From UHGV virus genome UHGV-2079066: a stretch of DNA of 40,071 nt; one strand, 5' to 3'. Under the pieces are notes generated by a model that saw only the letters and a program-made list of their open reading frames with translations, was not told where the DNA came from and searched no databases. This document shows positions 204-40,047 of this stretch, piece by piece (position 1 is the first letter of the stretch; every line of letters starts with the position of its first letter). The translations under genes were made by a program, and so were the position numbers. Origin of the DNA: a virus.

Positions 204-593
204 TCACATCACCGGGCAGTCATCAAACTCCGCGTTCCTGGCATCATTAATGATGTACGTGATCACCCCGAATATAGCGGGTGCAGAACTGTAACCGTCA
301 TCATCTACTGGCAACGCCTCCCTTCTCCCGTTCTCCAGATTAACCAGGTGGGGTTGAGGATGAGTCCGATATCGCTTGATCCTGAATTCCCCGTCTATCG
401 CACATATCAGCAGCGAGCCATCACAGGCTGAAAGTGAGGCATCAACAACAAGCAGCGCCCCCTGAATTATCCCTTCCCTGAAATGTGAACGCGATGCACG
501 CATGAAATAAGTCGCTGCGGGCTGGCTGATTAACTGCTGATCGAGGGAGATTCGTGTTTCAACATAATCTGCAGCAGGTGAAGGAAAGCCCAT
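204..593 (-). CDS. UmuD'-like protein (peptidase S24 fold, UmuD family), begins at the post-cleavage Gly
   Basis: seen: ATG at 593-591 preceded by AAGGAG gives M-GFPSPAADYVETRISLDQQLI...ATYF...ASRSHF...LLVVD...IDGEF, collinear with recalled E. coli UmuD from residue G25 onward. The track ORF extends 6 codons further to a GTG with no SD. Confidence 0.7.
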   Translation of the reverse strand: MGFPSPAADYVETRISLDQQLISQPAATYFMRASRSHFREGIIQGALLVVDASLSACDGSLLICAIDGEFRIKRYRTHPQPHLVNLENGRREALPVDDDGYSSAPAIFGVITYIINDARNAEFDDCPVM

Positions 594-685
594 GATCTGC
601 ACTCCTTTCACTGTTTTTATATACAGTAGTTTTAAAGGGGTTGCAGATCAATGAGGCGACACCTATCAATCTACGCCACCGGGGG

Positions 686-3049
686 TTATTTGAATTTACG
701 AATCAACAACTGAGTGATCCGCACCGTCCTGGCAATGTTTCTCGTTGCGTAAACTCCGCCAATAATCCCACCGCCGCAGAACTTCCCCTGCGTCCAGTCT
801 CCCGTATAGTTCAGGACAGGGGTGTCGATAGTCTCCCACCCGTCGTAGACCTTAACGGTCTGAGTTGTAGGCGAGGTTTTTTCGCAGCGGATGAGGAACT
901 TTCTTGCCCTATCGGTGGGACTATAAACATCGTCTATCCCGGCCTGGATCTGAGGATAGGGAGCGGAACCCTGGTATGGATAGCGCAGCTGTAGCAGGTT
1001 AAATGTTTTCGACGTGGCATACAAAAGCAGGCAATTATCCTCCTGATAATTATCTGCAGCTCCCGAGTTTCGGTTGAGGGACTTCCCGCCAAAGAAAAGA
1101 AAACCCGTATCCGTGTCGAAGAAGCCCTCAACCAGGATTTCAACTTTGTCACCTACCTGTCCAATATCAGCGCAGTTTGTGCCGTCAAACATCTCAGGAT
1201 TCATGAACGCCACGCGGTTATTTGTGGCATCCGCCTCGAAGCGGAAATCGAGAGGCCCGGTTTTCTCCAGCGCATTCACCTGAATATAATTTGGCGCGCC
1301 GTAGTTGTTCACGTAGCCAAAGGTGTCCCTGGCCTTCCAGAACGGATTGAACTCAAACCAGCCGCCCCAGAATGCCCCGAGAACTGTCGCCGATGGCGCG
1401 ATCACCTGGATACGGTTAAGCCCGTATTTCAACTTGGTAAGATAGAATGGACGGTCTGTCGCGTTGATGGCTGCTTCGTTCTCTCCGGTGTCCGGAAGCT
1501 CTTTATCGTAATAGGCGGAAGAGTTACCGAGTGAAAAGACCCTCACGCGCGGCAGCTGGTCGGCTGCATATGTAGATCCAATATTGCTGTTGCCAAAATT
1601 GCGGTATATCAGGGAATCCTGATTACCCTCGCTCCACACGAAGAAGTCAAAGATAACCTCGCTCGCCACATAGTCTGCGGCCTGGATGTACCAGATCCGC
1701 GGGAACCGCGAGTATTTATATCCCTCCGACCCCGTATCAGGAACCCAGCTGGAATTGTAGTCCTTCGAATATCGCATCCGGCTGTCCATCCAGCAGATAC
1801 GCTCAATATCAGTACCGTAGCAGCGAAGAATGTCAGGCATAAACGACTGAGCGACAAAGGACGCTTTCATCGCATGGCCAACGTCCCCCCAGTGCAGGCC
1901 GTCAGGCTGGAGTTCATACTGGTTGGAGTAATCGCTGTTTTTGGACATCCATGTTTTTTGCATGAAGTCCTGATCGATAATGGACACCCCCAGCACCTCC
2001 GCCATGTATTTTTTCGCGGCATCGATCTGGGCTGCAGCTTCTTCATTGTCACGCCCGGAAGTACCAGAGTTCCAGCCGTTGTAGGAGCGCCAGTTTGCAT
2101 CGCAGGTCGTTAGTACGGGTGTGGCGCCGGCTGCGATAACCTTCTTCATGACCTCGATTGTTTGCGCGATATGCTCGGTGATTTTATTTCCTGCGTCTGT
2201 AATATCGTTCAGCCCGAAGCTGATGATCACGATATCCGGGTTAGAAGGAATATAGGGGTTTTGCAGGACGATTTTATCAAAGTAATAATTTACCCAGCCG
2301 TTCTGCATTTGCTGGCCGGAATACCCAGCGTTATAAACGCTAATGTTGTTGTTACGATGGTACTGCCGAAGGATTGTCTGCAGTCTGGCACACCATGCAT
2401 TGGGCGCTTCTGCGTTATGGTCACTGTTGGCCAGAGGTGCAGTGGCCCACGGGAAGCCAGTTACAGGCGTGGTGGGGTTTGCCGTCCACCCCGTGGAGCC
2501 ATTACCATCACCGGTCGAATCGGCTATGCTGGTAATAATAACCGTCTCTCCGGCATGCATTTTTGCTGCCCAGTAATCCAGGGTTTTAATATGTCCCTGA
2601 AATAATGGTGCCGCAGCACTGAGAATTAACTGCCGAAGAGAGGCATCGCCTACGGAGACAAAATGGGAAGAGTCAGTTGTATCCCACGAAGTTTTTGTTG
2701 TCCCGGCTGTTTTATAAGGTGGTTTGGTACCAGCAGACAGCTTATAGAATTCACCGTCATAACGAATCAGCTCATTGTATTCAGAGACAGTAATTATGCC
2801 GTCTTCATAATCTCCAATTACGTCATAGCCCGCATTTTCAATAAAGGTGCGAAATCGCGTTTCCTGATCAGCTATCTGATTATTGAAGTCATATTCCATT
2901 CCACTCCACGATTTACGTATCCGACCCAGCCTGTCGGTCCATGTTTTGTTGGTAATTCCATTTACCGCCTGATCCAGGTTCTGAGCGTTATCACGTAAAT
3001 CGCGTGGGTCAGTTGAACCCGGCGGGTTAAGAGTGTTGCATGGTGCCAT
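686..3049 (-). CDS. tailspike / tail fiber with central SGNH-hydrolase (esterase) domain
   Basis: seen: 787 aa from ATG 3049 (SD GGAGA); SGNH blocks ADSTG (Ser), NAGYSG (Gly), GLND (Asn), DGLHWGD (Asp-His). Last gene of the tail operon. inference: N-terminal ~150 aa is the virion-attachment region. Confidence 0.75.
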   Translation of the reverse strand: MAPCNTLNPPGSTDPRDLRDNAQNLDQAVNGITNKTWTDRLGRIRKSWSGMEYDFNNQIADQETRFRTFIENAGYDVIGDYEDGIITVSEYNELIRYDGEFYKLSAGTKPPYKTAGTTKTSWDTTDSSHFVSVGDASLRQLILSAAAPLFQGHIKTLDYWAAKMHAGETVIITSIADSTGDGNGSTGWTANPTTPVTGFPWATAPLANSDHNAEAPNAWCARLQTILRQYHRNNNISVYNAGYSGQQMQNGWVNYYFDKIVLQNPYIPSNPDIVIISFGLNDITDAGNKITEHIAQTIEVMKKVIAAGATPVLTTCDANWRSYNGWNSGTSGRDNEEAAAQIDAAKKYMAEVLGVSIIDQDFMQKTWMSKNSDYSNQYELQPDGLHWGDVGHAMKASFVAQSFMPDILRCYGTDIERICWMDSRMRYSKDYNSSWVPDTGSEGYKYSRFPRIWYIQAADYVASEVIFDFFVWSEGNQDSLIYRNFGNSNIGSTYAADQLPRVRVFSLGNSSAYYDKELPDTGENEAAINATDRPFYLTKLKYGLNRIQVIAPSATVLGAFWGGWFEFNPFWKARDTFGYVNNYGAPNYIQVNALEKTGPLDFRFEADATNNRVAFMNPEMFDGTNCADIGQVGDKVEILVEGFFDTDTGFLFFGGKSLNRNSGAADNYQEDNCLLLYATSKTFNLLQLRYPYQGSAPYPQIQAGIDDVYSPTDRARKFLIRCEKTSPTTQTVKVYDGWETIDTPVLNYTGDWTQGKFCGGGIIGGVYATRNIARTVRITQLLIRKFK

Positions 3050-3063
3050 TGTATTTCTCCAGC

Positions 3064-3088
3064 ATAAAAAAACCCGCCGGAGCGGGTT
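3064..3088 (-). terminator. hairpin plus U-tract between J-like gene and tailspike
   Basis: seen: minus strand reads aacccgctccggcgggttttttt immediately before the tailspike SD. Confidence 0.5.
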
Positions 3089-3106
3089 ATGCAATTAAGG
3101 GTGTTT

Positions 3107-6100
3107 TCAGGAGACATCGCCGGGGTAGCTGGCGTCATCGTACTTATATTTATCGGGATGGTACTGAATGGCTGAAATACTGCTGGTCCCATCACCTCCG
3201 GGAGAAATCTCGCCAACCAGCGCGTCATACCCGACACGGGATGACGAACAGAACAGCAGGCGCGGCGGCTCAATGTACGGACTGTCCATCTCCCATTCTT
3301 CCGGTGCCAGCGCGGCGCTGTATGGAATACGCAGGGTGTAATCATCGATGCGCGTCGGAACCTGTAGCGGCGACGCCCGTCCGTCCTGGTGGCGGATCAC
3401 CACCCGCGGATTTGGAAAACTCCAGTCCGGCGGCTCGCTGACCGACATGATGATCGCTGTGCTGTCCCAGCTCATTTCAGTGATGAGGCAGCTCAGTGTC
3501 TGGTTACCGGGAATATCATCAGTGAGGATGATGCGGTCCATAAACTGGTAGCAGAGCGCGTCCATCTCCGTACTGGTCGTATGCTGCAGGCGCTGGAGCT
3601 GGTATCCGCGCAAGCGGCGCATGCCAATACGGTACGCCCGATCCTGATCCACAACCCCTTCCAGCCTGTAGTCTTCCACCTTCACTGGCGTGGAGTTTCC
3701 GGGCTGACGGCACTGTACGGTTTCTTCTGCCCAGGTCGTGCCGTTGATATACGTCACATCCACGCCGTCATAATCGTCCTGGCTCGGTGCCTTGAACGCG
3801 GTCTGAAGCTCTTCAGTAGTCTCCTGAGGGGTGATCATTCCGGTCCAGTTTTTCACGCCCTCCCGCCCGGCGGATACCAGTCCATCTGACAGCAGGAAAT
3901 ACCCCATCCCTGCGCCGGTAATAATTTTCAGCACCTCGAGTGCCGACTTACTGTCACCGGTGGCCCAGTCGAACGTTTCCCCGCGAGGGGTCCACCAGGT
4001 CTGCTCGAGGGCGTCAATCGCTGCGCGGTCAATTTGCTCAGGGCGGAAACCCAGAGATTCCAGAACGTGATACAGCGCCCCGCTGATACTGCGCGAAGCG
4101 TGTCCGTTATATAGCCGTGTGGGAGTGACGTTAACGCGGCGATCGGACTGGGCCGCCAGGCGGTTACCGGTCCGTACCGTCATCGCAAGGGTCGTCACAC
4201 CGGCATAGCTCCCCGGGCGTCTGCTTAACCGCGAGCGCATCGCCTGCCAGTAAAGATTGTTCACCGTCCTTGCGCCGCCAATTTTTGTCGTGCGCCGCAC
4301 GCGGACTTCATACTGTGCTGCCGCCAGCCCGCTGATGCGCCGGGTATAACCGTGGCCATCTGCGGTTTTGTTGGTGAAGTTATAAACCACCTGCGACCAG
4401 GCTCCCGCAGAGGCGGCATTGCGGTACTGAACCAGAACCCGCACGGTGTGCGACTGGGGATCTCCGTTCTTTTTGTACTGGATGTGGCCATTGGGGAAAA
4501 TGAAGTTATTCTCGATGGCAGTCGTGGTTTCTCCGTCCGGACAGGCAAGGAAGGGCCCCAGCCAGGCGTAATCATCATTCACGCCGGTGACCTGGGCATC
4601 GAGCAGCGTACGCTCGGTGAACCCCGGCCAGGTCGGGTCCACGGTGACAACATCATTACCACTGGTGTCCTGGGTGACGACCACCCGCTCAACCGTGATG
4701 GTCTGATCATCAATATCGGTAATGCGGAACTGGCCGTCGGCATAGCCGATACCGATCCGCTGTACGCCATCAGGGATGCCGGTGAAAGGCTTGCCTGTCG
4801 CACTGTCATACGCCAGCGTGATATTTGCCTCAACCGCCGCGGTACCGCCCGTCGAGGCCACCCCGGTAACATCTACCGTAGCGCTGCCGAATACGGAGAC
4901 CGGAAGAGCGCTGTGACTGATGGCCCCCCCGGCAAACGGGCTGCTTTCCTCGGCAATCTGCAGCCGGCCACCAGTATCGCGCGCGATCAGGCCGGAACCG
5001 GTGAGCTGGTTTGATATGGTATTAACCAGTCCGGACATCGTGACGTAACTGGTAATGAGTGAGATAGCATACGTCGTGCCTTTCCAGCCGATCGTGAACG
5101 TAACCGGCGTTGCCGTGAAATCGTACGTGGTGGGCGCGGCGCTGGCGGTAATGCTCGCTGTCGAACCACCCACCCCGGGCACCGCCGGAACGCCTGCTGC
5201 GTAACTGGCGATATACAGATCATAAGCCGACTCATTAAACGTCACCGAGACAGGCATGCCTGCAGCTGGCCGTAGCTCAGCAACATCACCATAAATCACG
5301 CTGTACCCGCCGGCATTGGCAACCCGGTAGGAGTTTGGTGCTACTACCGTGATTACTGTGCCAACAACCCAGGCCGCCGGGATCTCCGTTTCACCGTCGC
5401 TGGCCGTGGCCGCAATCAGGGAAAGAGTGTTACCGCTCACCAGAATGGCATCAGAGATGATACTGACCGTCTGCGGGCCGGTTGAGCCGAGGTCGAGGCC
5501 TGCGGTACCCGAAGTGGTATTCCCCACCTCGCCGCTGTTGAACCAGTTCTCGGAACGACTATCGGCCGCAACGCTGGCACCCGGTGGATAGATGGTGGCG
5601 CTGACATCACTGCCGAACGCGGATGCTGGCGTGGAGCCAATGCGTATCGCCGACGCGGGCAGTGCCATGTCGCCCACCCCCACGCATAAAAACATGCTGG
5701 TCACGTATTTTTTGGGATCGGCGGAATCGAAGCGCGAAACCGGCTGGACGACGTAATCCGGCCACACCTTATAGCGACCAAATATCTCCCGGATGGGATC
5801 GCCCAGTTTTGCCATATTGGCCTTTGCAGGGTTGAGCTCGAGTTGATCCCCGTTGCCGGGCTGGCTGGCGCCGCCGGTCTGCATGGTGCTCATCATGTAG
5901 ATGGAGTAGGCGGCAGAGGCGACGGCTATTGCCACTGCCGTCCAGACCAGCCAGGCTGGCGCCGCCGGGCCAAACGGAACGGGATACAGGCGTACATCAT
6001 CATCCGGTGCGATAATCTGCGCACTCCACTCATTCGGAGGGATAGACACACCATTCAACTCCAGCGCCACCGGGTGGGTCATGTCAGGCTGCCAGCCCTG

Positions 6101-6199
6101 CACGTTTCTGGTGAACCAGTCGGCAATGGTGGTGCTGGCGTGCTGATGCGACTCCAGCGGTTCGCCTTCGATTCGGGAGGGATAAATTCGGATCGTCAC
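3107..6199 (-). CDS. central tail fiber / host specificity protein (J-like) with gpI-like N-terminal domain
   Basis: seen: 1030 aa; N-terminus has a hydrophobic segment LVWTAVAIAVASAAYSIYMM and a ...NMAKLGDPIREIFGRYKV... stretch resembling recalled lambda gpI C-terminus, then ~850 aa of tip protein. Position after K-like gene. Confidence 0.75.
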   Translation of the reverse strand: MTIRIYPSRIEGEPLESHQHASTTIADWFTRNVQGWQPDMTHPVALELNGVSIPPNEWSAQIIAPDDDVRLYPVPFGPAAPAWLVWTAVAIAVASAAYSIYMMSTMQTGGASQPGNGDQLELNPAKANMAKLGDPIREIFGRYKVWPDYVVQPVSRFDSADPKKYVTSMFLCVGVGDMALPASAIRIGSTPASAFGSDVSATIYPPGASVAADSRSENWFNSGEVGNTTSGTAGLDLGSTGPQTVSIISDAILVSGNTLSLIAATASDGETEIPAAWVVGTVITVVAPNSYRVANAGGYSVIYGDVAELRPAAGMPVSVTFNESAYDLYIASYAAGVPAVPGVGGSTASITASAAPTTYDFTATPVTFTIGWKGTTYAISLITSYVTMSGLVNTISNQLTGSGLIARDTGGRLQIAEESSPFAGGAISHSALPVSVFGSATVDVTGVASTGGTAAVEANITLAYDSATGKPFTGIPDGVQRIGIGYADGQFRITDIDDQTITVERVVVTQDTSGNDVVTVDPTWPGFTERTLLDAQVTGVNDDYAWLGPFLACPDGETTTAIENNFIFPNGHIQYKKNGDPQSHTVRVLVQYRNAASAGAWSQVVYNFTNKTADGHGYTRRISGLAAAQYEVRVRRTTKIGGARTVNNLYWQAMRSRLSRRPGSYAGVTTLAMTVRTGNRLAAQSDRRVNVTPTRLYNGHASRSISGALYHVLESLGFRPEQIDRAAIDALEQTWWTPRGETFDWATGDSKSALEVLKIITGAGMGYFLLSDGLVSAGREGVKNWTGMITPQETTEELQTAFKAPSQDDYDGVDVTYINGTTWAEETVQCRQPGNSTPVKVEDYRLEGVVDQDRAYRIGMRRLRGYQLQRLQHTTSTEMDALCYQFMDRIILTDDIPGNQTLSCLITEMSWDSTAIIMSVSEPPDWSFPNPRVVIRHQDGRASPLQVPTRIDDYTLRIPYSAALAPEEWEMDSPYIEPPRLLFCSSSRVGYDALVGEISPGGDGTSSISAIQYHPDKYKYDDASYPGDVS

Positions 6200-6750
6200 T
6201 TATAGAACTCCACTTTGACGTACTGCCGGAGAAATCGGGCCAGAGGTAATATGGTCACGTTGCGTTTAGGGTTAGCCTCGAGGACGTGCAAAGCGCCATT
6301 AACGGTGACGGCGATTCCCAGATGCGTTACTAGTCCCGCGGTATAACACGCCGCTACCGCACCCTCTTCTGGCTCGCATTTTTCGATACTGCTGAGGAAG
6401 CCGTTGCAGGTGTCATTCATCTGAGAGCCTTCGTTAATAACACCCTCAAAAACAGGCCAGTCCGGCAGACCTAGATCGCGCCTCACCTCATGAATTACGC
6501 CATAACAGTCGAGAACCGGGTAATCGCGGCCGCCCATCTGCCATGTAACCGAGAGGTATTTTTCAGGATTAAACCGACCTTCTCTGGAGGATGAATTCAT
6601 TTTTGAGGCGTTTGATAAGCTCACCATTCGGCTCCTTAATCTCTTTTCTTCCTCTGCTCGTGTGATGAGATCAGGCTGGTCGTGACATTCATGGTGGATA
6701 TTACGAGGATTCTCTGACGGCAGCGGATTTCCGGTATTGTATTTAGCCAT
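6196..6750 (-). CDS. tail assembly/tip protein with NlpC/P60-like Cys-His motifs (gpK-like)
   Basis: seen: ...DCYGVIHEV... and ...GLVTHLGIAVTVNGALHV... resemble NlpC/P60 Cys and His motifs; lies between L-like and J-like genes. Confidence 0.5.
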   Translation of the reverse strand: MAKYNTGNPLPSENPRNIHHECHDQPDLITRAEEEKRLRSRMVSLSNASKMNSSSREGRFNPEKYLSVTWQMGGRDYPVLDCYGVIHEVRRDLGLPDWPVFEGVINEGSQMNDTCNGFLSSIEKCEPEEGAVAACYTAGLVTHLGIAVTVNGALHVLEANPKRNVTILPLARFLRQYVKVEFYK

Positions 6751-20993: not shown

Positions 20994-21227
20994 TTAACGC
21001 TGGCATGGTTCAATCCTCACAGAGCCGTGAAGCGTATGCCGCTTCACTTCACCGTTCTCTGTCGTCATATAACCACGCTCATCAGGAACGGCTGCGATTA
21101 CTTCGCCCTTCTCATCGTCAGCAGTGAAGACATGCTTAACCTCTATACCATCGAGAAAAACAGCGTATCGCTCTACACCGAGATTAATCTTCCTGCCGGG
21201 ATCGTCATCTAATACAGTTAGACGCAT
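20994..21227 (-). CDS. hypothetical small protein (77 aa)
   Basis: seen: ATG 21227 with AAGAGG SD; MRLTVLDDDPGRKINLGVERYAVFLDGIEVKHVF.... Track ORF starts 18 codons upstream without SD. Confidence 0.5.
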   Translation of the reverse strand: MRLTVLDDDPGRKINLGVERYAVFLDGIEVKHVFTADDEKGEVIAAVPDERGYMTTENGEVKRHTLHGSVRIEPCQR

Positions 21228-21372
21228 ATGACCTCTTGTTAGGTTCATTTTTGTGTTCGAAGTGGCATCAAATTGAGACATAACTCTAATAACTTAAACT
21301 TTCTCATTCTTTAGTATTGATATTGGCCTTAATGGCTCAATGTTTATTAACTCATCAATAAGAGGTTTAATT

Positions 21373-21813
21373 ATGAGCATCGACTATTTAGACGTCCGTA
21401 AGGTTATTAAGTGTGCAGAACACAAAAAGGCTTTAGATGAAAAAGCAATCAAACTTAAGAAAAACGTTATTGACTCATGCAAAGAAAGTTCTTTAACTTC
21501 TAACACCTTGATTTTCAATCAAGATGCAGAAAACAGACTAACCCTAGAACTTTCAACATATGGGTTAGAACTCGTTTTCAATGAGAAACTGGTAGTCATC
21601 AATGAAGCCCCTCTTTTGAAGTTCGTTGCAACTGACTCAACTGATGAAAATAACAAGGAAGTAATTAGCTTCTTTTTAGGTAAAAATGGGTTGGTTTACA
21701 TTGGGGAGTACAAACCTAATCCATCTTATGATTATGAAGATGTTGATCTATTTCTCGATATACTTGAAGCTACATTAAAAGCGCTCAAGTCTTCCGATAA
21801 AATATCCTATTAA
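21373..21813 (+). CDS. hypothetical acidic protein, AT-rich moron on the opposite strand
   Basis: seen: ATG 21373 with AGAGG SD; markedly AT-rich codon usage versus neighbours; convergent with 21859-22089; hairpin 21820-21845 downstream. Confidence 0.55.
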   Translation: MSIDYLDVRKVIKCAEHKKALDEKAIKLKKNVIDSCKESSLTSNTLIFNQDAENRLTLELSTYGLELVFNEKLVVINEAPLLKFVATDSTDENNKEVISFFLGKNGLVYIGEYKPNPSYDYEDVDLFLDILEATLKALKSSDKISY

Positions 21814-21858
21814 CTGATGGCAGGCACCTGATACGTGCCTGCTGTAATGCATGATAGT

Positions 21859-22089
21859 TTAAGAGAAGGAGAGGCCCAAATTAACCAGTACATCTTTTTT
21901 CTCCTCTATACGCCGATCAAGTTCATCCACTGCATGCGGGCGTATGGCATCAAGAAAGGCATTATCCTGATAGGTCGACTGGATTGTCACCCCAAGTCCG
22001 GCACCGCTTTCCAGTATGCCTTTCTGTCGCTGTAGCTCTTTCATCTCGTTATAGATGTAATGCGCGTCACTTAGGTTCTCTACGTTCAC
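21859..22089 (-). CDS. hypothetical small protein (76 aa)
   Basis: seen: GTG start preceded by GAAGGAG at 7 nt; overlaps 3' end of upstream lipoprotein ORF. Confidence 0.45.
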   Translation of the reverse strand: MNVENLSDAHYIYNEMKELQRQKGILESGAGLGVTIQSTYQDNAFLDAIRPHAVDELDRRIEEKKDVLVNLGLSFS

Positions 22090-23863: not shown

Positions 23864-24400
23864 TTACAACGATCTAATCTCTTTCGATAAACAGTCCAAC
23901 ATTTTATTAGCCTCCTTATCAAAATTATGACCAGCGTTTAGAATTATATTCTTCGCCAATTTCTTATCGTCAACTTCACCTGACTGTATTTTGAAGAAAA
24001 CAGAATTGGCTGGTTTCAGCAATTTTCTAGATTCATCAAACATAACGCTAATCTCAGGAAAATAAACACCAGAGATTAAAATAATTCTATCACCAACTCC
24101 TTTATACTCAGGGTTTTTACTGAGAATTTCGTCTGATTTATCGCCAATGTCCTCAGATTTAAAACACCCATCAATACAATTTATCCAGCTCATATGATTG
24201 GCAAAAAGCAATTTTTTATAAAGTATTAATGCCTCATAAAGCTGTTCACCCTTTTCAATTTTCCTTCTATTTCTTTCTGAGCGCCACTCATGCGACTGCC
24301 TACTACTGTTCTGGAGGTAACTTGTAAGAGAAGTTATCAATGTACCCACAAAAATCCCCAAAGCAGCAATTAATGCAACATTTTCTTTAGTCAGTTCCAT
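23864..24400 (-). CDS. hypothetical single-pass membrane protein, AT-rich moron between Q and holin
   Basis: seen: ATG 24400 preceded by GGTGA; MELTKENVALIAALGIFVGTLITSLTSYL (TM) then ~150 aa soluble domain; low GC. Track ORF extends 38 codons upstream across a terminator hairpin. Confidence 0.55.
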   Translation of the reverse strand: MELTKENVALIAALGIFVGTLITSLTSYLQNSSRQSHEWRSERNRRKIEKGEQLYEALILYKKLLFANHMSWINCIDGCFKSEDIGDKSDEILSKNPEYKGVGDRIILISGVYFPEISVMFDESRKLLKPANSVFFKIQSGEVDDKKLAKNIILNAGHNFDKEANKMLDCLSKEIRSL

Positions 24401-24411
24401 ACTATCACCAT

Positions 24412-24434
24412 AAAAAAACCCCACCGAGGTGAGG
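24412..24434 (-). terminator. tR'-like intrinsic terminator downstream of candidate late promoter
   Basis: seen: minus strand CCUCACCUCGGUGGGG followed by U7. Confidence 0.5.
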
Positions 24435-24452
24435 TTATCATAGTGATCGATA

Positions 24453-24480
24453 GTTATACAAAGCCCATCATTGATGTCAA
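24453..24480 (-). promoter_or_regulatory. candidate late promoter (pR'-like): -35 TTGACA, 16-nt spacer, -10 TATAAC
   Basis: seen: TTGACA at 24480-24475 and TATAAC at 24458-24453 on minus strand, immediately downstream of Q. inference: Q-modified readthrough. Confidence 0.4.
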
Positions 24481-24523
24481 ATATACACAAATACGGCAAC
24501 ATTGCAAACATCATGACGCTAAA

Positions 24524-25354
24524 TTACGCGATATTTATCACATCTTCACTTTTAGTCACCCGATTCAGTTGAGAGCTTGAATAACTCTCCTCCTGGAAAC
24601 ATTTGGTCACCAGGCTTTCATAGAATGGTTTCCAGCTATAACGCCACGTTCGGTCAGGCAGACTCGGCAACTCAGAAAAAACACCTCGATAGGCAACCGA
24701 TGATTTTGGCCTGCTGTATCCCCGCCCTTCGCAGCGCTTACATTCTTTGTAAACTGGTACGCCCTGCAGTTCTGTCGCTTTACGGTCAACCGTCTTGCCA
24801 GTTCCGCCACACTGGCATCGCTTACTTAACTTTCCGGTACCATGGCATCGCGAACATAAACTTTGCTCGGAGTCAGTTACTTCTCGCTTTACCTCAAAGT
24901 CAGATGGTGACTGTCTCAGGTCTTTTGCCCATTGTGGCAATCGCATTGTGTAATGGCTTTTAGTCACGGTTTTAGTGGTTGTAAGCAACCCTTTACCACT
25001 ACATTTTGGGCATGCCACACAATCAGCTGCTGATGAGGAATAATCGTTATAGGCAAACCGGGCAAGGATACGCATGCAGAGGGGAAACTTTTTCCCTGAT
25101 GCTTTGCGAATGGCCATGGGCGCATGCTCTTTCGCGTACTCAGTTAGCCAGGTTATTGACGCCTCTCTGTCCTGGCTGCTGATACCAGCTTTACCTAAAA
25201 ACATTGCCAGCCCGATCCCCGCATCGGCCTGAGTCATCCCCAATGCAGCCATTACATCAGTAACCGTCAGTTGTTCACTGGCTGTCGCTCTACTGGTATC
25301 TGATATGTGCATGCCTTTAGGCGCAAAAAACTTTAAAACATTGTCCAGATTCAT
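24524..25354 (-). CDS. late antiterminator Q-like protein with four CxxCxGxG zinc-finger repeats
   Basis: seen: ATG 25354 with GGAG SD; CPKCSGKG, CSRCHGTGK, CQCGGTGK, CKRCEGRG; located just upstream of the late promoter and lysis genes. Confidence 0.55.
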   Translation of the reverse strand: MNLDNVLKFFAPKGMHISDTSRATASEQLTVTDVMAALGMTQADAGIGLAMFLGKAGISSQDREASITWLTEYAKEHAPMAIRKASGKKFPLCMRILARFAYNDYSSSAADCVACPKCSGKGLLTTTKTVTKSHYTMRLPQWAKDLRQSPSDFEVKREVTDSEQSLCSRCHGTGKLSKRCQCGGTGKTVDRKATELQGVPVYKECKRCEGRGYSRPKSSVAYRGVFSELPSLPDRTWRYSWKPFYESLVTKCFQEESYSSSQLNRVTKSEDVINIA

Positions 25355-30845: not shown

Positions 30846-31478
30846 ATGGATACCGTTGGCAGCAGACTGAGATTTAGAAGAAAGCAGAAAAAACTTACCC
30901 AGCGCGATGTGGCTGAGTGGGCAGGAGTAAGCGCGTCTGCTGTGACCCAGTGGGAAAGTGATTTAACAAAACTTTCTGGTGAGAACTTGATATTGGTGTG
31001 TAAATGCCTTCAGTGCTCGCCAGAATGGTTGGTTTTTGGTTCAGGCGATATCGAAAATGGCATTAACATCAACTTGATGTCTGCCAGAGAGGTCCCTCTC
31101 ATATCATGGGTGCAAGCTGGTAATTGGACGGAAGTAATTGGAAATCCTAATAATGAACAAGTGAAAACCACTCGAAAACTTTCTGATTCCGCCTTTGCTT
31201 TGAGGGTTAAGGGAGATTCAATGACTTCTAGCCAGGAGTTGAGTATTCCTGAAGGTTCTATTGTTATTGTTGAACCAGAGTTCGGCTTCGTGGATGAGGC
31301 AAACGGTAAAATTGTCGTTGCTCAAACGGTATCTGGTGGTGAGGCAACTTTAAAAAAGCTGGCGATAGACCCACCGTTTTCGTACCTAATCCCACTGAAT
31401 CCTGCGTTTAAACCCATTGAGGTGAATCAAGAGACCAATCTAATTGGGATAGTTAAACAAATTATCATTGACCTTTAG
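30846..31478 (+). CDS. cI: CI-like repressor (HTH_XRE plus LexA-type S24 autopeptidase domain)
   Basis: seen: N-terminal LTQRDVAEWAGVSASAVTQWE; Ala-Gly in VQAGNW; Ser in KGDSM and downstream Lys. Confidence 0.9.
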   Translation: MDTVGSRLRFRRKQKKLTQRDVAEWAGVSASAVTQWESDLTKLSGENLILVCKCLQCSPEWLVFGSGDIENGININLMSAREVPLISWVQAGNWTEVIGNPNNEQVKTTRKLSDSAFALRVKGDSMTSSQELSIPEGSIVIVEPEFGFVDEANGKIVVAQTVSGGEATLKKLAIDPPFSYLIPLNPAFKPIEVNQETNLIGIVKQIIIDL

Positions 31479-31495
31479 CCCCTCTGGTTCCTACA

Positions 31496-31522
31496 AGCCC
31501 GCTGATCATGCGGGCTTTTTTA
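31496..31522 (+). terminator. rho-independent terminator after cI
   Basis: seen: agcccgc-tgatcat-gcgggct followed by T6. Confidence 0.7.
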
Positions 31523-31538
31523 TGCCTGTGAAAATATA

Positions 31539-31589
31539 GTAAGCAAACTTACAAAATAGACTTGACTGTAAATGTAAGATGTCTAATAT
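31539..31589 (+). promoter_or_regulatory. pL-like promoter with OL operator: -35 TTGACT (31562-31567), -10 TAATAT (31584-31589)
   Basis: seen: 16-nt spacer; perfect 14-bp palindrome GTAAGcaaaCTTAC (31539-31552) matches the OR operator motif; further gtaag half-sites in the spacer. Confidence 0.5.
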
Positions 31590-31625
31590 TAAATCCATCA
31601 GCAACGAACATTGTGGGCATCAGGA

Positions 31626-31829
31626 ATGAAGATAGAGTTGGTTGTTAACGGGAAAATTACTGCTGAGTGCAGTGATGAATCGGAGTTTCTGGCATTCAAT
31701 GCTGCCGTTTTTAGCGCTCTATCGGACATGCAACTTACCCTTCATTCCGAACGAAGGGCTCGTTCAAAATCTAAAATGGCGGCCTTCAATGAGAAGTTTT
31801 TTAAAACGGATCCCACGGGTCGCAATTAA
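31626..31829 (+). CDS. hypothetical small protein, first ORF after pL (not N-like)
   Basis: seen: 67 aa from ATG 31626; weak SD; no arginine-rich N-terminus. Confidence 0.4.
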   Translation: MKIELVVNGKITAECSDESEFLAFNAAVFSALSDMQLTLHSERRARSKSKMAAFNEKFFKTDPTGRN

Positions 31830-32034
31830 GAGAATCAAGAAGCTTAATGGTTTGATAGGTGATGGCTTCCTGTTTAACAGTGTTTTCTGGGCTTGACAGT
31901 TGATCGCGCAATAATTGTATTTGGTTATGCAGGTCATCTGATAGTGGGCCCTCATTAGCACATATTGCAGCTGAAATGGTCTTAATCGCAGCTTCAATAG
32001 CAGTGAGTCTTAACTCAATAATATCGTTATTCAT
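31801..32034 (-). CDS. hypothetical small acidic helical protein, antisense to the early-left operon
   Basis: seen: 77 aa MNNDIIELRLTAIEAAIKTISAAICANEGPLSDDLHNQIQLLRDQL...; 3' end overlaps 31626-31829 by 29 nt; weak SD. Confidence 0.35.
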   Translation of the reverse strand: MNNDIIELRLTAIEAAIKTISAAICANEGPLSDDLHNQIQLLRDQLSSPENTVKQEAITYQTIKLLDSLNCDPWDPF

Positions 32035-37267: not shown

Positions 37268-38446
37268 ATGGCAGCCAGGCCAAGAAAAAGAGAATACCGC
37301 CATCTACCCGAATATCTAATATTCGATAAAGATCGCGGCGTTTATAAATTTACGCTTATAACTGGGAAAAAAAAGAATATCGGTAAAGACAGGGCTGTAG
37401 CGATCGCTATAGCCCGTGAATACAACCTCAGAATGAGGCCTACAAATGTACCATCAGTAGAAATACTTGTCCGTGAATCTGGCGGTGTAACGGGGGAGGC
37501 AAAACCATTTGCTGAACACGTAGATCATATTATGGAGCGGGCGATTGAGAATGAGCGCCCTTCACAGAATACACTCGACGATTGGAACAACGATGCTCTG
37601 AGGGTAAAAGAATTCTTCATCAGCATACCAGCTTGCGATATTGAGCTGGAGCATGTGAACGCCTATATAAACCACTACCATGCCGAAGCATCAGCAAACG
37701 TACAAAACAGGAAAGTCAGCTTTCTTAAAAAATTATTCTCCTATGCGGTCGATGAATCGCTAATGTTCGATAACCCGGCAACCCGTAAAAAAATGCGTAG
37801 GATAGAAGAGAAGAAACGCCAGCGCCTCTCACTTGATAACTTTAAAGCTATCAGGCGCGCAGCTGAACCATGGTTACGGACCGCGATGGATTTGGCATTG
37901 CAGACAACACACGCACGATTGGAGGTTTCACGGATCCGTTACTCCATAAGAGAGCCTAAAGACGGCATCTGCGGGTGTCTATGGTTAGCACAACCAGAAA
38001 ACGGTATTTATGGGACGCTATACATCCACAGGCAGAAAGTGCAAAAAAAAGAGGCATCTCACGTTGCAATCCCGATTGGGGAAGAGTTGAAGCGGATAAT
38101 TGACGATAGTCGAGATAATGTTGCCAGTCCGTTTGTCGTTCACAGAATCCCAGAACGGCAGGTTAAACGCAGCAAAGAGGTTTCACACCCTACTCAAGTT
38201 GCACCGGATTATTTAAGTCGGTCGTTTTCAGCTACGCGTGACATGCTAGGTTTATGCGACCATCTACCGATGGACGAAAGACCAACCTTTCACGAAATCA
38301 GAGCGCTGGCTGCGCATCTTTTCGATCAGCAGGGTATCGATCCACAAGGGCGAATGGCACATAGCGATGCGAAATCAACAAAGATCTACACGCAAAACCA
38401 TATCGACTGGGTAGTAGTTCCTCATGGCGAGATTCAGACAGCATAA
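37268..38446 (+). CDS. int: tyrosine integrase
   Basis: seen: 392 aa; C-terminal HEIRALAAHLF...KIYTQNH carries the His-x-x-Arg and catalytic Tyr of the R-H-R-Y family; adjacent to att. Confidence 0.9.
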   Translation: MAARPRKREYRHLPEYLIFDKDRGVYKFTLITGKKKNIGKDRAVAIAIAREYNLRMRPTNVPSVEILVRESGGVTGEAKPFAEHVDHIMERAIENERPSQNTLDDWNNDALRVKEFFISIPACDIELEHVNAYINHYHAEASANVQNRKVSFLKKLFSYAVDESLMFDNPATRKKMRRIEEKKRQRLSLDNFKAIRRAAEPWLRTAMDLALQTTHARLEVSRIRYSIREPKDGICGCLWLAQPENGIYGTLYIHRQKVQKKEASHVAIPIGEELKRIIDDSRDNVASPFVVHRIPERQVKRSKEVSHPTQVAPDYLSRSFSATRDMLGLCDHLPMDERPTFHEIRALAAHLFDQQGIDPQGRMAHSDAKSTKIYTQNHIDWVVVPHGEIQTA

Positions 38447-38753: not shown

Positions 38754-38792
38754 AAACCCTGATGGTTGGCGCCGTCAGGGTTTTTACTTTTT
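38754..38792. terminator. hairpin terminator (stronger on plus strand) just past the ImmA-like stop
   Basis: seen: aaaccctgatggttggcgccgtcagggttt followed by ttactttttt on plus strand. Confidence 0.45.
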
Positions 38793-39311
38793 TAACAACT
38801 GCTTTTGATAATCAGCTGCATGTGCGGATACCCCGCATGCTTCAGCAATTTCTTCTACCGACATGTTCCGCAACAATGCTGAATGGCTATATGGCACGAG
38901 CAATTCCCCACTAAAACACTTTGCTTGCCACTCGCTACTTTCAAAAGCTCTAATTTCAACTCCTGGAGCAGCGCGAGCAAAAGCAATATTCTTATGCATC
39001 AGAAGATGCCCTATTTCATGGGCAACCGTCATACGGTCACGGCCATTTCCAGCATGGGCACCTTCATATACATCTTCGCGTAGAATAATTAGTGATTCCT
39101 GAGGCATAGTTAGCCCATGAGTGCCACCCATCTCCTTTTCAGAAGCTGTTTCAAACGAAAAGTTGGGTAAGATCTGCGGTAACGCGAACTCAAGCATTTC
39201 AATCACAGGAAAATACAAATCATGTATCTTCAGCATCGAGCGTAAATTATTAGTTAAACCGCGAACCGCGCTGCGGCTTAAAGGTGGCACTCGATAATCT
39301 TGTCCGCTCAA
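38784..39311 (-). CDS. ImmA/IrrE-family zinc metallopeptidase
   Basis: seen: HEXXH as AHEIGHLLMH; 175 aa; directly downstream of an XRE HTH gene. Confidence 0.8.
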   Translation of the reverse strand: MSGQDYRVPPLSRSAVRGLTNNLRSMLKIHDLYFPVIEMLEFALPQILPNFSFETASEKEMGGTHGLTMPQESLIILREDVYEGAHAGNGRDRMTVAHEIGHLLMHKNIAFARAAPGVEIRAFESSEWQAKCFSGELLVPYSHSALLRNMSVEEIAEACGVSAHAADYQKQLLKK

Positions 39312-39325
39312 ACAGAGCCTCCTAC

Positions 39326-39685
39326 TTATTGTTTTTTAGTTAACAATTCACGTAGACGTTTAAACTCATCATCACTTAGCTCATCAAAGTTGCGTGCAAA
39401 TGCCATCGCTACTTCACGAGCATTTTGATTCTTACCCGAAAGATTAATCTCAACAGATTGTTGAGAATCACGAGCTGCTTTCGCTAACTCATCCCCAGCA
39501 TGAACGCCTTCATTAGTGAAATAATTAATGATGCTTTTCAATACAGGGTCAGTAACAGCCCGCTTTCCTGTTTCAATTGCTGAGAGGTAAGACGAGGTCA
39601 CGCCCATAGCATCAGCCATGCTTTTCAGCGTGACACCGACGTCTATTCGTAATTTCCTAACTTTCTTACCAAACGGCGTTAACAT
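39326..39685 (-). CDS. XRE-family HTH transcriptional regulator
   Basis: seen: KKVRKLRIDVGVTLKSMADAMGVTSSYLSAIETGKR; GAGAGG SD. Confidence 0.8.
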   Translation of the reverse strand: MLTPFGKKVRKLRIDVGVTLKSMADAMGVTSSYLSAIETGKRAVTDPVLKSIINYFTNEGVHAGDELAKAARDSQQSVEINLSGKNQNAREVAMAFARNFDELSDDEFKRLRELLTKKQ

Positions 39686-39752
39686 ATTTTTGCCTCTCTA
39701 ATGTGCGTGAGAGCCGGATGTACTCGACTCTGGGAGCAAGATAACAAACCAC

Positions 39753-39790
39753 AGACGATAAATCAACTAAATTTTGTTGATTTATCGTCT
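39753..39790. promoter_or_regulatory. perfect 15-bp inverted repeat (operator- or terminator-like) upstream of the XRE gene
   Basis: seen: AGACGATAAATCAAC-taaatttt-GTTGATTTATCGTCT, ~70 bp upstream of the XRE start codon. Confidence 0.5.
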
Positions 39791-39994
39791 TTTAAAAGTT
39801 CATGCCTTTATACTTATAGTAGTTCATTTTCTTCTTACAAGATTGCCAGTTTATGCTGAAATGAATGGGGAGAAACCACCACCTAAGCCATTGAAGTATA
39901 TAGAGCAGATTATGTCGAAAAAGCACTGTTTGTTTATACATGCAAATGGTACTTTGAACCAGCAATAGCGCGGCTCTCAGCGTTTTACAAGCGG

Positions 39995-40047
39995 CGTCAT
40001 GGGGTGTCGGGGGTCGGAGGTTCAAATCCTCTCGTGCCGACCAAAAA
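39995..40047. repeat. att core direct repeat, right copy (displaced tRNA 3' fragment)
   Basis: seen: identical to 25-77; upstream flank is not tRNA-like, so this copy is partial. Confidence 0.85.

Follow-up and report, generated by a model that had tools for sequence, protein, structure and literature searches.

A tailspike of an E. coli prophage that probably removes acetyl groups from a bacterial surface polysaccharide

The virus genome UHGV-2079066, a stretch of 40,071 nucleotides that we call the window, carries a tailspike gene on its minus strand (686..3049; 787 amino acids plus stop). We propose that the encoded protein is a side receptor-binding spike. It would combine a modular anchor, an SGNH esterase and a lectin-like body, and it would deacetylate a surface polysaccharide of the host, most probably the O-antigen. 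We put the probability of this interpretation at about 0.75. The working part of the tailspike is very probably an esterase, which strips acetyl groups from the surface polysaccharide.

The predicted SGNH esterase and the body behind it

Residues ~155-405 form the SGNH/GDSL esterase domain (1835..2587, minus strand), delimited by Pfam matches and the predicted fold. Two Pfam models score above their cutoffs: PF13472 with E=2.6e-11 and 44.8 bits (cutoff 32.9), and PF00657 with E=1.5e-7 and 32.3 bits (cutoff 23.6). The original prediction had read four SGNH blocks from the sequence. All four are present on the minus strand, each exactly once. Block I (ADSTG, residues 176-180, 2510..2524) contains the predicted nucleophile Ser178 (nucleotides 2516-2518). 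The oxyanion hole would be formed by Gly242 of Block II (NAGYSG, residues 240-245, 2315..2332) and Asn281 of Block III (GLND, residues 279-282, 2204..2215). Block V (DGLHWGD, residues 383-389, 1883..1903) supplies Asp383 and His386 of the predicted catalytic triad.

These residues are conserved. A sequence search of 5.8 billion proteins returned 89 relatives. We aligned 28 homologues that cover the esterase region and range from 20 to 95% identity. Invariant in all 28 are D177, S178, G182, N240, G242, G279, N281, D282, D383 and H386, and likewise Y243, S244 and G245 of Block II. Ser178 and His386, on whose conservation the prediction had staked itself, therefore give no reason to abandon it. 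Because the Pfam models exceed their cutoffs and the motif residues are invariant in the homologues, the motifs are not a product of chance. The protein has the features of an SGNH family member: the serine of Block I, the glycine of Block II, the asparagine of Block III, the DxxH of Block V, the Pfam models and the alpha/beta/alpha fold.

The only departure from the textbook SGNH pattern is residue 176, a noncatalytic position. It is an alanine in the tailspike and its closest relatives and a glycine in most other homologues. An alanine instead of glycine in Block I could be taken as the mark of a catalytically dead binding module, in which case the whole protein would be a nonenzymatic tail fibre. 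We consider this very unlikely, since every catalytic and oxyanion-hole residue is invariant down to 20% identity, as one would expect if selection maintained an active enzyme.

The predicted structure agrees with the motifs. AlphaFold2 models were built with the homologue alignment and as monomers only. Confidence is high for residues 155-787, with a predicted local distance difference test (pLDDT) of 85-96 in most blocks and about 90 in the SGNH domain. It is poor for residues 1-152, as expected when a trimeric anchor is modelled as a monomer. The SGNH fold that the original prediction called for is thus predicted with high confidence. The best Foldseek match in the PDB is gp63.1 of phage G7C (4QNL; E=1.2e-20, template modelling (TM) scores 0.57/0.54, 714 columns), followed by gp82 of phage Moo19 (9D81; E=1.2e-13). 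In a library of viral models, the high-ranking matches include the PP99 tail spike, from a Pectobacterium phage (E=1.9e-20). Sequence profiles lead to gp63.1 as well: a profile of the 28 homologues finds 4qnl_A as its best match among PDB sequences (E=2.1e-7, profile positions 216-547), and the alignment lines up Blocks I-III (GDSxTDG, NxxxSG and GxND).

The next Foldseek ranks hold generic SGNH enzymes, including TesA and Axe2, and the target-normalised TM-scores to TesA, EstA and other SGNH enzymes are 0.75-0.81. Such generic matches, TesA/lysophospholipase L1 among them, would also suit an enzyme whose target is not polysaccharide but outer-membrane lipids or acyl chains, a lipase or lysophospholipase. 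One source even names one homologue "lysophospholipase L1-like esterase". We find a lipase scarcely credible, because the best whole-body matches are polysaccharide-deacetylating tailspikes and the SGNH domain is followed by domains that resemble lectins and carbohydrate-binding modules (CBMs).

The C-terminal all-beta region (residues 406-787; 689..1834, minus strand) consists of lectin/ConA-like beta-sandwiches that are also found in G7C gp63.1. The tailspike has the gp63.1-type architecture, an SGNH domain fused to a gp63.1-type C-terminal beta-sandwich body. The beta-sandwich family is small, with 42 cluster representatives in 1.84 billion proteins. A GDSL domain lies upstream of the beta-sandwich region in 29 of the 34 remote members. 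Three of the other five are only 243-352 amino acids long, match only the beta-sandwich region and are probably fragments. Thus, the esterase and the beta-sandwiches behave as one unit.

A further proposal gives the ConA-like domains a depolymerising site of their own (GH16- or PL7-like); the spike would then both deacetylate and cut the polysaccharide. This is improbable on several grounds. The higher-ranking matches are noncatalytic lectins and CBMs, and the top match, gp63.1, leaves the backbone intact. All invariant residues in the C-terminal region are glycines; the near-invariant ones are Trp, Leu, Asp and Gly, unlike a set of acid/base catalysts.

The tailspikes that the protein resembles have been characterised. 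G7C gp63.1 takes O-acetyl groups off the O-antigen of E. coli 4s but does not cut its backbone. Without this activity G7C does not infect, and mutants deficient in acetylation resist the phage (PMC10743462). Moo19 gp82 hydrolyses 4-nitrophenyl acetate, and Moo19 fails to enter a double mutant without the gtr locus and OacD, an O-acetyltransferase (PMC11654681). From PP99, gp55, which is the named counterpart of the match among the viral models, removes acetyl groups from the 6-deoxytalose in the side chain of the host O-polysaccharide (PMC6989608). Both gp82 and gp55 are shown esterases linked to O-antigen acetylation, and both have the overall topology of our tailspike. The claim of a receptor-modifying, deacetylating spike rather than a glycosidase is therefore supported: the closest solved structures are phage esterase or deacetylase tailspikes and not generic lipases.

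The relatives differ from the tailspike in their phages and their anchors. G7C is a lytic N4-like podovirus, whereas the present phage is a temperate siphovirus-type prophage. The anchor module of gp63.1 binds podovirus gp66, whereas the tailspike carries a siphovirus anchor of the Sf11 gp13 type. Moo19 (N4-like) and PP99 (T7-like) are podoviruses as well; their anchors differ from that of the tailspike and their sequence identity to it is ~14%. A likeness of another kind is offered by the SGNH fibres of Klebsiella prophages (PLoS Biol 2026, PMC13123978), which are temperate enterobacterial receptor-binding proteins with an SGNH domain, like the tailspike. Two of them, 164_08-KL2 and 174_38-KL55, are active esterases. 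SGNH domains are reported to be among the commonest enzymatic domains in the receptor-binding proteins of Klebsiella prophages, and such proteins have been proposed as a common alternative to depolymerases, linked to capsule loci (PMC13123978). The Klebsiella fibres have a brush-like architecture with a C-terminal SGNH domain and are associated with capsule loci (PMC13123978); we liken them to the tailspike by description only.

Exchange of anchors and bodies

The N-terminal virion-anchor module comprises residues 1-140 (2630..3049, minus strand). A tail-fibre-type N-terminus had been predicted, and it is real: phrog_17635, a "tail fiber protein" family, matches residues 4-135 with E=1.3e-21. 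The first 164 residues as a single sequence match the Sf11 tailspike gp13 (PDB 9OCC_G) with E=7.9e-10, residues 2-142 aligning to 2-130, and a family profile matches the same chain with E=4.7e-28. Cryo-electron microscopy of Sf11 shows that three gp13 chains contribute N-terminal helices to a bundle, joined there by an adaptor helix from the distal tail protein, and that six gp13 trimers decorate the tail tip (PMC12724387).

The tailspike gene directly follows the gene of a gpJ-like tail-tip protein (3107..6199, minus strand; 1030 amino acids; phrog_469 E=1e-233; PF24801 FNIII-A_GpJ E=1.4e-12) and closes the tail module. The gpJ-like protein is probably the central fibre or hub. Sf11 gp13 is likewise encoded by the terminal gene of a siphovirus tail module, after the hub protein, and the two anchors are homologous. 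In contrast, the body of gp13 is a P22/Sf6-like beta-helix endorhamnosidase, whereas that of the tailspike is of the SGNH esterase type. Sf11 gp13 docks on a distal tail protein of 457 amino acids with an adaptor helix, and a protein of such length was not identified in the window. Between the tape measure and the gpJ-like gene lie genes for proteins of 153, 166 (DUF1833) and 184 amino acids. Sequence searches with these three and with the 1030-amino-acid gpJ-like protein gave no solved relative. Klebsiella phage ZCKP8 shares both the anchor and the layout of short-protein genes; in a comparison with that phage, a weak similarity of the gpJ-like protein was all that appeared.

BLASTP comparisons of the tailspike with its relatives break sharply at residue ~140. 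The body (residues 140-787) is 89-92% identical in 886-amino-acid proteins labelled E. coli and Enterobacter (cloacae). One of these carriers sits in an epsilon15-like E. coli prophage and adjoins the lysis genes. In another protein, a body of 77% identity stands behind a P22 head-binding N-terminus, an arrangement that recurs in the annotated tailspike of a P22-like E. coli prophage. In further proteins the body follows T7-fibre (PF03906) and TSP1/Gp66 (PF18668) N-termini, and proteins labelled Pseudomonas carry bodies of 66-73% identity. Taken together, bodies of 66-92% identity are joined to five or more types of anchor, and the proteins that carry them are labelled with several genera.

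The anchor is exchanged as well. Residues 1-140 occur in more than 50 proteins ahead of other bodies, with BLASTP alignments that end at residue ~140-150. At 40-57% identity they precede beta-helix (PF12708, PF13229) and S74-chaperone (PF13884) bodies. One esterase body is thus traded between siphovirus and podovirus anchors. The exchange of the body between unrelated phage types lends indirect support to the host-range role that the original prediction had given the spike.

One neighbouring protein shares a short piece with the anchor. Its open reading frame (ORF; 6196..6750, minus strand) has 184 codons for amino acids and immediately precedes the gpJ-like gene. Over its first ~18 residues (MAKYNTGNPLPSENPRN) the protein aligns with the beginning of the tailspike-anchor family, the two initial methionines coinciding (E=1.6e-4 in a search of the 348 ORFs of the window). 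Most homologues of the 184-amino-acid protein have only 126 amino acids and lack the 58-residue N-terminal extension; one cluster (Citrobacter, 92% identity) is full length and includes it. Three explanations are conceivable for the N-terminal peptide: both proteins may dock through it, recombination may have left behind the 5' end of a tailspike gene, or the start may have been over-called. As a common docking peptide, it may fit different proteins into one tail-tip socket. Many NCBI homologues of the 184-amino-acid protein bear the name "nitrite transporter", apparently a misannotation of a tail protein.

O-antigen or another acetylated glycan

We favour the O-antigen as the substrate because the same body is found on P22- and epsilon15-type tailspikes and because the characterised structural relatives act or depend on O-antigen. 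Phages of the P22 and epsilon15 types use O-antigen.

The same architecture and the same chemistry could instead serve another O-acetylated glycan: a group 1 or group 4 capsule, colanic acid, enterobacterial common antigen (ECA) or another exopolysaccharide. We consider this possible but rather unlikely. In its favour, Klebsiella prophage receptor-binding proteins with an SGNH domain associate with capsule loci (PMC13123978), and two acetyltransferases, WcaB and WcaF, are annotated in the colanic-acid cluster of E. coli. Two observations given below also fit this reading: the range of genus labels on close bodies, and an O1-family cluster in which no acetyltransferase is annotated. Against it stand the occurrence of the body on podovirus tailspikes of the P22 and epsilon15 types and the three characterised relatives from G7C, Moo19 and PP99, all of which act on or depend on O-antigen.

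A more specific and more speculative idea is that the body does not read a serotype-specific O-antigen but a widely conserved O-acetylated glycan, such as ECA, colanic acid or a similar "key polysaccharide". A conserved target of this kind could explain why bodies of 66-92% identity sit on at least five anchor types and under several genus labels. The ~18-residue common docking peptide is a second possibility in the same doubtful range.

Several observations weigh against an O-antigen-deacetylating spike anchored as in Sf11. Near-identical bodies labelled E. coli and Enterobacter cloacae (89-92%), and those labelled Pseudomonas (66-73%), would suit a conserved glycan. The O-serogroup was considered for five complete E. 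coli genomes that carry a related body, of which one, strain 980-2, was typed. This lysogen has an O-antigen cluster of the O1 family with no annotated acetyltransferase, and so gives no support to an acetylated O-antigen target. The identity of the tailspike to G7C gp63.1 is only ~13-14%, and the single full-length sequence found no match at E<=1 among PDB sequences. Since gp63.1 was found by profile and structure comparison but not by the single sequence, the relationship is remote. Block I reads ADS instead of the usual GDS in the tailspike lineage, a change that is probably harmless. Finally, the Sf11 anchor docks on a long distal tail protein, and the counterpart here is short, with 153 amino acids.

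As for the other four related lysogens, none was present among the 60 genomes listed of the 95 that an O1 search matched. The O-antigen locus of one lysogen, TCM3e1, was not located by map position; its genome is rearranged.

For the spike acting on O-antigen, we infer catalytic activity, substrate, trimer state, docking site and the order of the adsorption steps as follows. The spike would be trimeric. Residues 1-140 would be an exchangeable anchor that fixes it to the tail tip; as their homology to Sf11 gp13 suggests, N-terminal helices would bundle with an adaptor at the tail tip. Residues 155-405 would act as the SGNH esterase, with the triad Ser178-His386-Asp383 and the oxyanion hole Gly242/Asn281. 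The lectin-like beta-sandwiches of residues 406-787 would make up the rest of the spike body, as in G7C gp63.1, and probably grip the polysaccharide. When the spike meets a cell, its lectin-like domains and its esterase cleft would bind the O-acetylated surface polysaccharide, most probably O-antigen, and the triad would remove acetyl groups without cutting the backbone. Deacetylation would make attachment specific, reversible and possibly processive, and attachment would draw the gpJ-like tip up to the outer membrane. Which strains can be infected would then depend on the body module.

The gene, its prophage and the place of the spike

The reading frame 686..3049 with 787 amino acids holds; the original prediction had left out the strand, which is minus. 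The frame starts with the ATG at 3049. It is present in the list of ORFs, its translation was checked, and an independent gene call on an identical public contig in ENA also gives 787 amino acids. A Shine-Dalgarno ribosome-binding site, GGAG (3057..3060, minus strand), read directly from the sequence, lies 7 nucleotides upstream of the ATG. A consensus scan places a terminator-like hairpin at 3066..3088 (minus strand; stem-loop 3088-3071; 7-bp stem, five G-C pairs, T-run), between the stop codon of the gpJ-like gene and the ribosome-binding site of the tailspike, exactly at the module boundary. In the same scan, the number of terminator-like hairpins in the region falls inside the range of shuffled sequences. 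A longer reading of 802 amino acids from the TTG at 3094 is unlikely. This TTG is 6 nucleotides upstream of the hairpin. We prefer the 787-amino-acid start because of the GGAG 7 nucleotides before the ATG and because the hairpin would lie inside the longer ORF.

Close copies of the gene are rare. None of 5,426 complete E. coli genomes has one; the best matches, in five of these genomes, show 79% nucleotide identity over ~80% of the gene. Megablast against a collection of phage genomes gave no match to the gene, and the best tblastn hit in a GenBank phage genome collection was Aeromonas phage ZPAH34 with 27.7% identity. An NCBIfam search with the tailspike gave no meaningful match. The BFVD entry A0A345BQW8, a viral protein of 758 amino acids, is 65% identical to the tailspike (TM 0.80).

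The window is one complete ~40-kb temperate siphovirus-type prophage, with a long-tail gene set and a gpJ-like tip. It is inserted at a tRNA gene, and its two ends carry a 53-bp direct repeat (25-77 and 39995-40047). The tRNA (1-70) is cut by the window edge; it was found with Rfam (41 bits) and missed by ARAGORN. We take it to be proL, from the K-12 map. A public contig with the identical protein has the flank yejM-yejL-yejK-rplY-radD, which is 100% identical to E. coli genomes. Hence, the host is E. coli.

The gene order at the left end is tRNA, umuD-like gene, tailspike, gpJ-like gene, three small tail proteins and tape measure. The umuD-like gene (204..611, minus strand; Peptidase_S24; phrog_811 E=1.7e-51) is an orphan: downstream of it no umuC partner is seen. 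A palindrome that resembles a LexA box, TACTGTATATAAAAACAGT (CTGT-N8-ACAG, 611-626), lies ahead of it. The gene looks like an SOS-regulated moron at the prophage end. At the other end, the integrase (37268..38446) is not the outermost gene, and a metalloprotease- or regulator-like ORF (38784..39311) lies beyond it. Four stretches have a low G+C content (0.40-0.42 vs ~0.55 in the rest of the window): ~21000-22000, 24000-25000, 31000-32000 and 39000-40000. They may be morons. A 157-amino-acid ORF (21340..21813, plus strand) has no PHROG match.

SGNH esterase tailspikes are a well-described type, known since 2017 from G7C gp63.1 and common in enterobacterial prophages. The present protein is an ordinary example, and it raises no new question. 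It adds a siphovirus-type prophage of E. coli to the cases in which deacetylation, and not depolymerisation alone, serves phage entry, a strategy already documented as common. The tailspike is a candidate enzyme for removing O-acetyl groups from bacterial surface polysaccharide, and its body would predict which E. coli strains this temperate phage can infect.

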